Shown here one piece after another: positions 1,571 through 24,713 of a DNA stretch of 32,000 bases. The DNA is from an uncultured archaeon (GTDB lineage: Archaea > Asgardarchaeota > Thorarchaeia > Thorarchaeales > CAZPUN01). Within the stretch, counting starts at the first letter, position 1. Each line of letters begins with the position of its first letter. Position numbers and translations under genes: made by a program. The notes under the pieces are model-generated. The model did no database searches, was not told where the DNA came from, and worked only from the letters and a program-made list of their open reading frames with translations. The stretch is taken from NCBI GenBank assembly GCA_964589775.1, contig CAZPUN010000027.1, positions 10,923-42,922 of the forward strand, in the 5' to 3' direction.

Positions 1571-2374
1571 TTAATAATAATGGTCCTTATCTGGAAAAAT
1601 TTCTTTTCTAACCTCATCAGCATATGTATTTATTGCCTTAACGATTTCATCTCCTAAATTTGCATACGTTTTCAAAAATTTCGGTTTAAATCCACGAACC
1701 ATACCTAACATATCATATATAACTAGTACTTGTCCATCACAATATGGGCCTGCACCTATTCCAATAGTTGGAATATTTATTGAATTCGTAATTTCTTTTG
1801 CAATTTCTGATGGTACCAATTCTAAGACTAGAGAAAAAGCTCCTGCATTTTCAATTGCTTTTGCACTTTCTATCAAGTATTTTTGTGTTTTTTCATCTTT
1901 TCCTTGGACTTTATATCCTCCAAATTTGTGGATCGACTGCGGTGTAAATCCTATATGTCCCATAACTGGTATACCCGCATCTACTACTTTTCTGATTATG
2001 TTTTCAATTTCTTTTCCCCCTTCCATCTTTACCGCTTCGGCATGGCCTTCTTGGATCAAGCGTCCTGCATTTTGCAATGCCTGCTCTGGACTAATTTTGT
2101 AAGTCATAAATGGCATATCCGCTACTACTAACGAATATTGATTTCCTCTTGCGACAGCTGCTGTATGATGTATTATATCTTCGAGAGTTACTGGTATTGT
2201 ATTGTCATATCCTAAGACTGTATTTCCAACGGAGTCTCCCACCAAAATTATGTCCACGCTGCTTTCATTGAACAACTTGCTCATAATATAATCATAAGCA
2301 GTTAACATTACAATCTTTTTGCCCTTCTTTTTCATCTGTAGGAGTTTTGTAACTGTGATTTTTTTTCTATCCAT
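1571..2374 (-). CDS. panB: 3-methyl-2-oxobutanoate hydroxymethyltransferase
   Basis: Motifs MLTAYD, ILVGDS, ADMPF, VKMEGG, VMGHIGFTPQ and IGIGAG..CDGQVLV. Start reassigned to ATG 2374 (MDRKKITV). Confidence 0.97.
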   Translation of the reverse strand: MDRKKITVTKLLQMKKKGKKIVMLTAYDYIMSKLFNESSVDIILVGDSVGNTVLGYDNTIPVTLEDIIHHTAAVARGNQYSLVVADMPFMTYKISPEQALQNAGRLIQEGHAEAVKMEGGKEIENIIRKVVDAGIPVMGHIGFTPQSIHKFGGYKVQGKDEKTQKYLIESAKAIENAGAFSLVLELVPSEIAKEITNSINIPTIGIGAGPYCDGQVLVIYDMLGMVRGFKPKFLKTYANLGDEIVKAINTYADEVRKEIFPDKDHYY

Positions 2375-13769: not shown

Positions 13770-14498
13770 TCAAATCTTCGGGAATTCTCCTCTTTCAAAT
13801 TTTTTTACGAAATCTACCAACTCATTTATAGCTGCTTCGACTATTACTGTACCTTTTGCTGGACTTGCTTTTGTTGGATCTCCATACATACCATCTTTAA
13901 GCTGTTTACTTCTTAGTTTTGATGAATAGAAACTAAATTCAAAATGCGGTCTCCATGCAACGGCTTTGCTCAAATCTACAAGGTCCGGTCGCACTGCCAT
14001 GACTTCTGAGGTCTCGTCTTCCGCCGCATGGCCTTCTTGAGTTTCTAAAACTTTCTTGCGTGCGTCTTTTCCAAGATCTAACCACCAGTTTATTACTACA
14101 ATTATTGCATCGTTTCCTTCGCACGCTTCTTCTGCGGCAGCTCTAATATGTCCTGCATTACCTCCATGTCCATTTAGTACTATAATTTTCTTGATTCCAT
14201 TTGCTATTATTGCTCGTAAGACTTCAGTATAGAAGTTACGAAGTGTATCTGGCGATATAGAGATCGTGCCCGGAAAATCTTTGAAATGCCAGGAATCGCC
14301 AAATGGTATAGGCGGAAGAACTAAAGCGTCTGTTTTTTCTGCCACAACTTTAGAAATCTCAGTCGGTAACAACATATCTGTAAAAAGTGGAAGGTGCTTT
14401 CCGTGTGCCTCTAATGAACCACATGGCAGAATTGCAACGCTATTTTCATTCCTTAAGTCATCAAATTTTGGTGAAGATAATTCTCCCCATAATGGCAT
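13770..14498 (-). CDS. Creatininase-family amidohydrolase
   Basis: GSLEAHGKHLPLFTD, NGHGGN and HAAEDETS. Confidence 0.92.
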   Translation of the reverse strand: MPLWGELSSPKFDDLRNENSVAILPCGSLEAHGKHLPLFTDMLLPTEISKVVAEKTDALVLPPIPFGDSWHFKDFPGTISISPDTLRNFYTEVLRAIIANGIKKIIVLNGHGGNAGHIRAAAEEACEGNDAIIVVINWWLDLGKDARKKVLETQEGHAAEDETSEVMAVRPDLVDLSKAVAWRPHFEFSFYSSKLRSKQLKDGMYGDPTKASPAKGTVIVEAAINELVDFVKKFERGEFPKI

Positions 14499-14626: not shown

Positions 14627-14720
14627 AGCCCGGTGGTGTAGTGGTCAGGGTAAATTCCCCACAAAAGCATTTGGGACTCTGGATCCCGAGACCCAGGTTC
14701 GAATCCTGGCCGGGCTACCA
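14627..14720 (+). tRNA. tRNA-Gln(CTG) with an 18-nt non-canonical D-loop intron (14647-14664), CCA encoded
   Basis: Acceptor stem AGCCCGG/CCGGGCT. Anticodon arm TGGGA-CTCTGGA-TCCCG. T arm CCAGG-TTCGAAT-CCTGG. Ends in ACCA. Removing 14647-14664 leaves a 76-nt standard tRNA. Confidence 0.95.
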
Positions 14721-14805
14721 TTTATGCCTAATTTTCATTTAACTATTAGTGGTTAGTGAGAATTAGGTCAAAAAAAAGTAGTATTAAAAAAACAATAACA
14801 ACAAG

Positions 14806-14870
14806 GGAGCCCTGTGTGACCTTTTTGCCGGGAGGCCACTTAGGTTCACTAAGCGTGAACACAGGACTCC
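14806..14870 (-). ncRNA. Unidentified small structured RNA candidate (65 nt)
   Basis: 57% GC island with a 12-bp terminal stem GGAGUCCUGUGU/ACACAGGGCUCC. TTTTAAAA TATA box 23-30 nt upstream and T7/T8 tracts downstream. Confidence 0.6.
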
Positions 14871-15022
14871 ATATAATATTTTATATAAATGCTTTTAAAA
14901 TCTTTTGGCTTTTAGCAACTAAATTGTTAAAAAAAGTATATATGTGGATAATTCTTCTACACAAATGTAATATGATTATGCTGAACAATGTATATTTTTT
15001 AAAAGGTAATAGAAATAGCAAG

Positions 15023-15346
15023 TTAGGATTGGTTTTGTAATTCGCGCATACGTCTTTCGCGTTCGCGCATTAATTTTTCGTAGACTTTTTGAAGTTTTTC
15101 TCGTGTCATTGCTCCCAGATACACCTTTACATCATCTACGCCATCTAATGATAAAACGCGTTCTCGTGCATCGTTTGCAATATAGCTTGCTAGAGGACAA
15201 CCAGGAACTGTAAGATCTATTGTTAACTCAACTTTGTTTCCATCAATTTTTATATCTCTTACCATTTCTAGAAAAACAATGTCGGCTCCAATTTCTGGAT
15301 CTACTACGTTTTTTAGAACTTCAATAATTTCCTGTTCGGAGACCAT
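15023..15346 (-). CDS. Metal-sulfur cluster assembly factor (DUF59/SufT/FeS_assembly_P)
   Basis: V.DPEIGADIVFLEMV and LTVPGCPLA. ATG 15346 follows a GGTG SD; 15358 is an alternative start. Confidence 0.92.
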   Translation of the reverse strand: MVSEQEIIEVLKNVVDPEIGADIVFLEMVRDIKIDGNKVELTIDLTVPGCPLASYIANDARERVLSLDGVDDVKVYLGAMTREKLQKVYEKLMRERERRMRELQNQS

Positions 15347-15685
15347 AATCTGCACCATTCATTCTTTTATTTGTATAAAAGGTTCGTTAGCATGTATTAA
15401 AGTTATTCGATAGATACAGATTGTATATTTTTTTAATATTATTTGTACTACGCATGAATATTATTTAATTTGTCTAGATATATGTTAAAATTTTTATAGA
15501 TATTTCAATTGGAAAAATATAAAAGAATTTGTAGTTTCCATTTCATAATCCTTAAATAATACTGCATAGTGGTTTGAACGTAATAATATAATGAGAACAA
15601 GTCATGACAAATTAAATGACAAATAGTTTTGACGCGTTCGCCATTTGGATTATTAAGTTTAAGTTGAACATAAAAGGTGAACAAG

Positions 15686-22429: not shown

Positions 22430-23380
22430 ATGAGAAGAGGGATTTATGTGTCAGCTCCAGGTCAATGCCCCTATTTGAATATATCTAAAAGTGGATATTA
22501 CTGTAAAGTTCGAAACATGCCTATAATTGATACAGAAGTTCGTTATAAATGTACGAATCCAAGCATGTATCAATATTGTGCAATAGCCTATGAAGATTTA
22601 ATAAAAGCAAATAAAATGGCTTCCGAGCGAAATCCAGAAGCCTTATTATGGTTAAAAGAAGCAACGGAGTACTTCAAGGTCATTGGCGAAACTGACAATG
22701 CTATTTATTCTGAAATTCAAGCTATTAAGATTGCATTAGCACTTGAAATGGATGATGAAGCAAAGCGACGATATGAAATTGCTCGTGAGATCTATGATAA
22801 AGGTATTGCTGCTGGTGATCCTGCATTAAGTAACCCTCGTGTTCGTGATGAACTGAATGAGATCGGTTCTCAGGTTACTGAATCATTTAAAGCATCGGAA
22901 CCAATGATGGCGTTGCAGGCTGAACTGAAACAAAGCCTTATGCAAGGAATTAAATTGAAGCCCGCAGAACGAAAGGATAAAATCGATATGGAGCTAGAAG
23001 TTATTGATCGGACACGTGTGTACAAGCAAAAATCCGCTGAATACTGGGAGGCAGCTGAAAAATACTTGCAATCTGGAATAATTCAAAGTGCTGTTTTATT
23101 TGCATGTTTAGGCGCCCTATCTGATTTAATGTTAGGTATTCCCAAGGAAGCAATTAAAAAACTAGTCCAGTTCATAGATCGAACCGGTAAGAAAGAAGAA
23201 GTATCAAATCTCTCAATATTTCGTATGACAAAACTATTATTCAAGGCCTATGTTGAAAAGAGTCATGCTGCATTATCTGATGCGGAAGTTTTGTTCCGTA
23301 AGATGGTTTTTGTCTTTGATGATGATGAGCAATTTGCGAAACGTGCTGTACAATTTGTAAAGAATAAAATCAGGTCTTAG
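22430..23380 (+). CDS. Hypothetical protein: N-terminal Cys4 cluster, TPR/SNAP-like helical repeats and a central WH2-like motif
   Basis: CPY-x9-C-x15-C-x8-C. Helical repeats such as KEATEYFKVIG and WEAAEKYLQSG. LKQSLMQGIKLKPAE. The true start may be GTG 22448, after GAGGG. Confidence 0.75.
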   Translation: MRRGIYVSAPGQCPYLNISKSGYYCKVRNMPIIDTEVRYKCTNPSMYQYCAIAYEDLIKANKMASERNPEALLWLKEATEYFKVIGETDNAIYSEIQAIKIALALEMDDEAKRRYEIAREIYDKGIAAGDPALSNPRVRDELNEIGSQVTESFKASEPMMALQAELKQSLMQGIKLKPAERKDKIDMELEVIDRTRVYKQKSAEYWEAAEKYLQSGIIQSAVLFACLGALSDLMLGIPKEAIKKLVQFIDRTGKKEEVSNLSIFRMTKLLFKAYVEKSHAALSDAEVLFRKMVFVFDDDEQFAKRAVQFVKNKIRS

Positions 23381-24713
23381 GTACGAACTGAGACATGAAA
23401 AATCCAATTGTATTATGAATATGTGGGAAAAGTCGCTTAACATAGGGAGCTGACAAATATCCCTTATATCCCTCTACGCCGATTGATTCTACATGTTGTA
23501 TTTCTATTAAATCTTGTTTCATCAGAAAATCTATTTGTGCCTCGCCTTCCTGTGGTAATAAGGAGCATGTTGAGAAAATAATTCGTTTTGGTGGCTTCTG
23601 GAACATTCTCAAAGAGTTCATTAAAATTTTATTTTGAATAGTCGTAAGAATGCCCAAGCGATTTCTGTTAATTTTCCATTTCACATCCGGATTCTGTTGA
23701 AAAGTTCCTGAAGATGAACATGGAGCATCTAATAAGATTCGGTCCACCTCAATTCCTTGGATTTTGCTTATGTCTCCATGTATAACTTGGATCTCATGGT
23801 ATCCCAATCGGTCAAAATTTTGTTTCATTTTCTCCAATCGCTTATATGACAATTCAACGGCAATTAACTTTCCTTCTCCTTGCATTATTTCCCAGATTAG
23901 ACGTGTTTTCATACCTGGTGCAGAACAACCATCTAATATAGTTTCTCCCGGTTTTGGATCTAGTGCTTTCACAGCTGCAATGCTTGCTTTATCTTGAATA
24001 AATATTAGTCGCTCTTTATGTGCACGAGTATGTACTATTGGTATTTTTGTATCTACGACTCTTAGTACGAGCTCTGGAAAATCTTCATCTTTCTCAACTT
24101 TGACTTCGTCTTCATTCAAAGCTTCGATTGCCATATCTACATCTGCTTTTAGAGTGTTCACGCTTAGCCATGTGGTTTTATTCTGATTGTTTGCTTCTAA
24201 TAATTTTAGAATTTCTTCTTCGTTCATAAATTTTGATAATAGCCGTACAAGATAACTAGGATGGGAATAAATTAAACCGAGCTTCTGATCATTTTCAAAA
24301 TCGCTTAAGAAATCCTCTAAATTCAAATTAATTGCCTTACCCAATGACCGCCTTAATTTCGTGATCAAATACTCATCATATTTATCTTTAAAGTAATTGC
24401 TCAATTCTGTAAAGAGTGGTACTGCATATCCTTTAAATGACCGAAAATTTGTTAATGATATTCTAAGTGCTGATTTCAATTCGGGGGCCAGTTCCATATA
24501 TGTAATATCTCTTGGCATACTGCGTACGAGTAAAAAGTCAATTGTATTTAGTGTTCGTATGGTTTCCAAAACGATGGAATAGATAGCACTAACTTGGCTT
24601 ACATTTGATATGTTCTTCTGATAAATTGTGCTTCGAACTAATTCACGAATCGATGATTTTGAAGTTTCATATTTCGTTAGTATTTCCCATGCTATCTTAT
24701 TCACTTCGCTCAT
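23370..24713 (-). CDS. RsmB/NOP2/NSUN-family RNA m5C methyltransferase with a NusB-like N-terminus
   Basis: IQDKAS, LDGCSAPGMKT, LDAPCSSSG (motif IV), FSTCS (motif VI) and PHIHNTIGFF. Confidence 0.93.
   Translation of the reverse strand: MSEVNKIAWEILTKYETSKSSIRELVRSTIYQKNISNVSQVSAIYSIVLETIRTLNTIDFLLVRSMPRDITYMELAPELKSALRISLTNFRSFKGYAVPLFTELSNYFKDKYDEYLITKLRRSLGKAINLNLEDFLSDFENDQKLGLIYSHPSYLVRLLSKFMNEEEILKLLEANNQNKTTWLSVNTLKADVDMAIEALNEDEVKVEKDEDFPELVLRVVDTKIPIVHTRAHKERLIFIQDKASIAAVKALDPKPGETILDGCSAPGMKTRLIWEIMQGEGKLIAVELSYKRLEKMKQNFDRLGYHEIQVIHGDISKIQGIEVDRILLDAPCSSSGTFQQNPDVKWKINRNRLGILTTIQNKILMNSLRMFQKPPKRIIFSTCSLLPQEGEAQIDFLMKQDLIEIQHVESIGVEGYKGYLSAPYVKRLFPHIHNTIGFFMSQFVPKT

Follow-up and report, generated by a model that had tools for sequence, protein, structure and literature searches.

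The analyzed window is a 32,000-nt stretch of the contig CAZPUN010000027.1 (positions 10,923 to 42,922 of the forward strand, GenBank assembly GCA_964589775.1) from a Thorarchaeota-type Asgard archaeon. The minus strand contains a 65-nt predicted small RNA gene, which faces a tRNA-Gln(CUG) gene with a D-loop intron at a distance of 86 nt, and lies 152 nt after the stop codon of an FeS-assembly-protein gene. The features of the locus and of the putative target locus elsewhere in the genome (G000, contig C56) are listed in the table.

Features of the predicted small RNA locus, its surroundings and its putative target (positions refer to the window unless a contig or locus is named; RNA position n = window 14871 - n)
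Feature	Position	Strand	Remarks
Small RNA gene	14806-14870	-	65 nt; primary transcript probably runs on to the T7 run (about 80-85 nt)
P1, 5' strand of closing stem	14861-14870	-	nt 1-10; pairs with 14806-14815; corresponds to the GGAG...CUCC closing stem of the sister family
P1, 3' strand of closing stem	14806-14815	-	nt 56-65
P2 hairpin	14844-14860	-	nt 11-27; 6 bp, 5-nt loop
P3 hairpin	14816-14839	-	nt 32-55; 7 bp, 10-nt loop; nearly the reverse complement of the target's SD hairpin
Anti-Shine-Dalgarno segment	14825-14839	-	nt 32-46; 15 nt perfectly complementary to the leader of the 85-aa gene
Only variable base	14823	-	nt 48 (A/U/C), in loop 3 just outside the predicted duplex
TATA box	14893-14900	-	TTTTAAAA; 22 nt between the box and G1; invariant in relatives
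BRE	14901-14906	-	AAAAGA; invariant in relatives
First oligo-T run (T7)	14786-14792	-	likely archaeal terminator of the small RNA; a T run is kept in relatives
Second oligo-T run (T8)	14770-14777	-	back-up terminator
tRNA-Gln(CUG)	14627-14720	+	positional marker of the RNA family; co-oriented in the sister family, convergent here
T7 run between upstream gene and promoter	14929-14935		
FeS-assembly-protein gene	15023-15358	-	ends in TAA, no in-frame TGA
Conserved block in divergent spacer	15521-15585		65 nt, between the FeS-assembly-protein gene and the EF-2 paralog
ORF overlapping the element	14756-15040	+	spurious
Gene with a 14-nt antisense match	23370-24713		447 aa; site at 24154-24167, matching nt 9-22
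Putative target gene	G000:C56:13842-14096	-	85 aa
Putative target site	G000:C56:14105-14119	-	covers GGAGG 12 nt before the AUG
Leader of the target gene	G000:C56 about 14120-14215	-	locus L002, 1516-1600
Repeated CGTTTAC/CGTGTAC motifs	L002 about 1840-1930	-	upstream of the target gene
Hairpin with an 11-nt match	G000:C48 about 45700-45790		locus L037, 900-990

The minus strand of the element folds into a three-way junction, in which the closing stem and two hairpins meet and a 4-nt junction separates P2 from P3. The fold energy calculated by RNAfold is -31.3 kcal/mol (z = -5.09), and none of 200 dinucleotide shuffles folds as well, whereas the plus strand folds less well (-26.3 kcal/mol, z = -2.7). 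Two G.U pairs (U5.G61 and G35.U52) would be C-A mismatches on the plus strand. The element has a GC content of 57%, compared with 35.2% for the genome. The sequence, strand, three-way junction, promoter elements and T runs described for this element in an earlier note were all confirmed. The 12-bp terminal stem proposed there, with inner hairpins of 4 and 5 bp, is the same junction with two pairs migrated, because G11-U12 can pair with either A26-C27 or A54-C55; the sister-family alignment favors the 6-bp form of P2. The alternative pairing of loop 1 with the junction, also pointed out in that note, exists in the sequence but has no counterpart in the sister-family RNAs.

Two of the checks suggested in advance were a comparison with Rfam and a count of genomic copies. 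No match to Rfam 15 was found over the element, either at gathering thresholds or at E <= 10, and the sequence occurs once in the 2.16-Mb genome, so it is not a repeat or MITE. A tRNA, an armless, split or permuted tRNA, or an acceptor minihelix was considered and dropped, judging by the absence of D and T arms and of CCA and by the short length; C/D and H/ACA sRNAs by the absence of boxes and of a 3' ACA; SECIS by the stop codon of the upstream gene and its lack of an in-frame TGA; and HDV-like, twister and hammerhead ribozymes, as well as an SRP Alu-like domain, by the absence of an Rfam signal. A fragment of SRP or RNase P RNA was rejected, since complete genes for both are present elsewhere in the genome.

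The neighboring tRNA gene carries a non-canonical intron of about 18-21 nt in the D-loop and is miscalled as tRNA-Cys(ACA) by ARAGORN. More generally, ARAGORN finds only 20 tRNAs and the Rfam tRNA model about 28-30 in this 96.75%-complete genome, and many tRNA genes probably have unusual introns or layouts that escape detection.

Close relatives were identified through the 90%-identity protein cluster of the upstream FeS-assembly-protein, which led to syntenic contigs from four lineages. Over 2 kb these lineages are about 78% identical to the window. The lineage of the studied genome itself is present in runs SRR32938009, SRR32938001, SRR21418560 and SRR8542060 and in assembly ERZ27262694. The spacer just after the stop codon of the upstream gene is only 32-45% identical, whereas a block from about 14940 to 14800 is 85-97% identical. 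This block contains a T7 run, an invariant stretch of about 27 bases holding the BRE and TATA box, and the RNA, in which 64 of 65 bases are invariant. The exons of the tRNA-Gln are conserved to the same degree, while its intron varies. The BRE/TATA matches the promoters of this genome's tRNA genes in sequence and spacing, and its distance to G1 is that expected for a start at G1. On the plus strand, the TATA-like sequence before the element is not kept in the relatives, and the overlapping ORF was discarded because of indels and the low identity (32-45%) of the relatives in that region. The same comparison revealed the block at 15521-15585, which is 95% identical across lineages that are 35-45% identical just beside it and may be a promoter, a leader or another small RNA.

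Direct searches for homologs of the RNA gave nothing. BLAST and a single-sequence covariance model (R1) found no homolog in 60 genomes of the same order, from the sister family (f2, named Thorarchaeota in public records; the family of the studied genome is termed f1), or in 150 genomes sampled across the phylum. The two near-hits of BLAST were chance matches inside GC-richer sequence, and R1 failed because P3 is remodeled in the sister family. A search based on synteny with the FeS-assembly-protein gene also failed, since that gene is not conserved in f2. A loop-based DNA pattern gave no hits in JGI metagenome contigs and only two chance bacterial hits in GTDB genomes.

The family was instead recognized through the putative target. 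The longest antisense match of the RNA anywhere in its genome is 15 nt, formed by nt 32-46 with the leader of a gene encoding an 85-aa protein. The site sits in its own small hairpin, with a 5-bp stem and a 12-nt loop carrying most of the SD (core CCGGGAGG). P3 is almost the reverse complement of that whole hairpin, giving 15 + 5 bp and -38.8 kcal/mol against -7.4 and -6.7 for the two hairpins alone. The hybrid energy is -33 kcal/mol against an opening cost of 15, i.e., a net gain of about -18 kcal/mol. A match of 15 nt or more anywhere in the genome occurs for 5.6% of dinucleotide shuffles, whereas an antisense match of that length to a deliberately lenient set of 11,784 start regions occurs for only 0.42% of 20,000 shuffles. 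The next-best antisense matches in the genome are 11-14 nt long, and those inspected lie inside coding regions, or are same-sense matches, not at start sites. The 14-nt match inside the 447-aa gene, about 180 codons from its start, is at chance level (14-mers or longer occur for about 23% of shuffles). The 11-nt match on contig C48 is in the same sense as loop 3 and lies in a strong GC-rich hairpin followed by a U run after a 50-aa plus-strand ORF, which is probably a terminator, and this match is probably due to chance.

The site is invariant in the four f1 lineages that also carry the RNA, while its flanks vary. In a fifth lineage (L030, a 513-bp contig), a 1-nt indel between the hairpin and the AUG shows that the hairpin is untranslated. 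The leader of this lineage has U-to-A at the position that pairs with A46. The f1 leader is about 95 nt long, GC-rich and structured, and has no Rfam match. Its 5' end (GCCUC) can also pair with the SD in cis, and one lineage (L033) shows a compensatory change in the closing helix of the leader. The repeated, partly palindromic CGTTTAC/CGTGTAC motifs lie upstream of the target gene in f1 and flank its TATA box in f2 (loci L040-L047), which looks like a conserved operator for a transcription factor.

The putative target belongs to an uncharacterized family of proteins of about 73-94 aa (loci L039-L047 and L118-L131), with invariant residues M1, L6, H25, G30, G31, Y33 and L60. A profile search finds it, mostly once per genome, in 61 of 77 f2 genomes and in several other Asgard families (f7, f12, f19 and others). 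In family f7 (L119, L120, L122 and L129) the leader of the orthologous gene pairs its SD (GGGAGGG) with an upstream CCCUCCC in one hairpin, a cis version of the masking that the small RNA would do in trans. The protein has no Pfam, NCBIfam, PADLOC or PDB-sequence match; a HicA-like toxin was considered, but no such similarity was detected in Pfam, NCBIfam or PADLOC. A type I toxin-antitoxin system is likewise not indicated, since the target is a hydrophilic and widely conserved protein rather than a small, usually hydrophobic, patchily distributed toxic peptide. A first model was poor (pLDDT 60), and Foldseek found nothing with it. A second model, made by AlphaFold with a 22-sequence alignment, gave a confident helix/four strands/helix sandwich (pLDDT 88.9), for which Foldseek returned only weak polo-box matches with E > 0.1. 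The best VIA-align match was the Med17 C-terminal domain (Z 8.1), followed by frataxin-like folds (Z 5-7); these scores are within background, and no fold family is claimed.

In f2 the leader of the orthologous gene is short and carries an SD hairpin whose stem covaries and whose loop keeps the core CCGGGAGG. Five f2 genomes were searched for the reverse complement of this loop. In G026, G034 and G278 the exact 12-mer occurs only at the target locus and at one further site, G272 has an additional copy at the 3' end of a tRNA-like gene, and in G037 the 12-mer is present only at the target, with no sRNA found. The four further sites are homologous to each other and belong to an RNA of 79-114 nt (mostly 85-101) with its own TATA box. 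BLAST finds this RNA in 34 of 60 f2 genomes. A covariance model built from two f2 sequences (R2) finds it in 21 of 27 f2 genomes, always once, and in none of 123 genomes of other Asgard families. Each member folds into a three-way junction with the C-rich motif in the apical loop of the third arm. RNAalifold on a plain MAFFT alignment of the f2 RNAs gave no structure, because the 5' ends were misaligned. On the model-guided alignment, 25 of 34 pairs show compensatory changes and 92% of cells are paired, compared with at most 58% when partners are slid by 1-3 columns, although this alignment is fitted to the model, which favors it somewhat.

The window RNA has the same junction topology as the f2 RNAs. 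P1 and P2 align, the P2 sequence being nearly that of G054, G036 and G027, whereas P3 does not align and is treated as an insertion. The C-rich core CCUCCCGG is present at nt 36-43, partly in the P3 stem rather than wholly in an apical loop. In f2, tRNA-Gln(CUG) lies upstream on the same strand in 16 of 18 loci checked, while here the RNA gene is inverted relative to the tRNA. The only match of R2 in the window has exactly the boundaries of the element, end to end, but is marginal (18.4 bits, E 0.095 in 148 kb, with no match at E <= 0.01 in a whole-genome search), the score being similar to those of the divergent f2 members G012 (19.2) and G022 (16.3). Homology therefore rests on P1, P2, synteny and the shared loop motif together.

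The predicted pairing is conserved and covaries. In 28 genomes with both loci, contiguous pairing around the shared 8-nt core is 9-15 bp. On the 5' side of the core, f2 has two C-G pairs where f1 has two U-A pairs; on the 3' side, f2 has G-C where f1 has C-G, and f1 adds three more pairs. Within f2, that G-C pair becomes A-U in G015, G030 and G043, where the RNA has lost one C, which brings a U into register, and G039 has the G.U intermediate. Cognate pairs match better than swapped ones: the f1 leader pairs over 15 bp with its own RNA and 11 with f2 RNAs, and f2 leaders pair over 12 bp with their own RNA and 8-10 with the f1 RNA (permutation p about 0.001 over 13 classes). However, the classes are related genomes and represent roughly three to four evolutionary events; within f1 both partners are invariant, so f1 alone gives no covariation. 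In addition, in G015 and G028 an A.C mismatch next to the core shortens the pairing to 9-10 bp without compensation.

Taken together, these data support the interpretation of the earlier note that the element is an independently transcribed minus-strand small RNA of no catalogued family; its membership in an order-wide RNA family and the antisense match of its largest loop to a specific ribosome-binding site could not be seen from the sequence available to that note. We propose that the element is a single-copy gene for the miniaturized f1 ortholog of the f2 RNA, which acts in trans to mask a ribosome-binding site (probability about 0.7). In this view, loop 3 contacts the loop of the SD hairpin, and the kissing contact spreads into a 15-bp (up to 20-bp) duplex that would bury the SD, block 30S binding and lower translation. 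The fold, the conservation, the resemblance of the promoter to tRNA promoters, the family membership, the complementarity and its covariation come directly from the sequence comparisons, whereas transcription of the RNA with its start and 3' end, binding in vivo, and repression rather than activation, which is deduced from SD occlusion, are all inferred. All 65 nt are constrained and not only the 15 that would pair; the invariance of P1, P2 and the junction is not explained by the duplex and points to a further requirement, such as stability, a protein partner or other targets.

Among the alternatives, a protein-binding or scaffold RNA, whose C-rich loop is recognized by a protein, for example as a mimic of the 16S rRNA 3' end, would make the complementarity to the leader a by-product of SD/anti-SD-like sequences in both. 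The invariance outside the predicted duplex is in line with this idea, as is a 21-nt block around the loop that is identical in many f2 genomes and exceeds the 12 paired bases. A mimic or a protein site does not, however, predict that the positions flanking the core change in step in the RNA and the leader, and the distribution of the exact 12-mer in G026, G034, G278 and G272 also speaks against it, so that we consider this reading unlikely. A general anti-SD regulator or sponge, for which the 85-aa gene would be only the best-matching of several targets, appears similarly improbable. The core CCUCC is complementary to the consensus SD, CCUCC-type loops match any SD to some degree, and validated archaeal sRNAs such as M. 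mazei sRNA154 and sRNA41 have several targets (PMC5867862), but the next-best matches that were inspected are not at start sites, and conservation and covariation were seen for this one leader.

A DNA-level element (a protein-binding inverted repeat or a recombination site beside the tRNA gene), or a terminator or 3'-UTR structure of the upstream gene, is very unlikely. The 10-12-bp inverted repeat and the position next to a tRNA gene and downstream of the FeS-assembly-protein gene would be compatible with it. Nonetheless, a T7 run and the conserved BRE/TATA separate that gene from the element, the two G.U pairs fit only the minus-strand RNA, the family fold covaries as RNA, and the upstream gene is absent beside the f2 RNAs.

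Almost nothing is known about RNA-based regulation in Asgard archaea, the closest prokaryotic relatives of eukaryotes. It is more likely than not that the RNA and the leader hairpin form an order-wide, dedicated riboregulator that has co-evolved since before the split of the two families and controls an Asgard-conserved, uncharacterized small protein. If so, as far as we could find, this would be the first sRNA-target pair in Asgard archaea supported by intermolecular covariation, and a handle on the function of that protein, whose tight translational control would suggest that dosage matters. Our literature searches on Asgard small RNAs and on sRNAs in Thorarchaeota retrieved no description of such a pair or of this RNA family. 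The locus provides a concrete, testable pair, comprising a small RNA with a predicted promoter and a defined 15-20-bp predicted interaction over a Shine-Dalgarno hairpin, with natural compensatory variants that predict which mutations should break and restore control. It assigns a probable function to an uncatalogued RNA family, and shows how such an RNA can shrink from about 100 to 65 nt while keeping its business end. Trans-acting archaeal anti-RBS sRNAs are already known; the new elements are the link of the 65-nt f1 RNA to the f2 family and the covarying target.

The closest known system to the element is the uncatalogued tRNA-Gln-linked RNA of the sister family, with which it shares the GGAG...CUCC closing stem and three-way junction, a P2 hairpin of nearly the same sequence in some members, the C-rich anti-SD motif in the third arm, the single copy per genome, the TATA box, the position beside tRNA-Gln(CUG) and the predicted pairing with the SD hairpin of the same orthologous gene. 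In the f1 RNA, the inner part of P1 and the long P3 arm are lost or remodeled, the anti-SD lies half in the P3 stem and half in a 10-nt loop instead of a 6-nt apical loop, and the flanks of the core are re-matched to the f1 leader. The proposed mechanism is that described for Methanosarcina mazei sRNA154, in which loop 2 masks the RBS of glnA2 mRNA, and for sRNA41, which masks RBSs in ACDS operon mRNAs (PMC5867862). Like the predicted RNA, these are intergenic, trans-encoded sRNAs with a stable stem-loop fold and an anti-RBS sequence in a loop; they belong to a different phylum and show no sequence or structural homology to it, and the putative pair in the Asgard archaeon appears to involve one dedicated, co-evolving target whose SD sits in its own hairpin loop. 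Loop-loop antisense control, such as that of CopA/CopT of plasmid R1, also involves a regulator hairpin and a target hairpin that are near reverse complements, where contact can start loop to loop, spread into the stems and cover a translation start region. CopA and CopT are cis-encoded and fully complementary, whereas the pair considered here is encoded on different contigs and shares only 15-20 bp.
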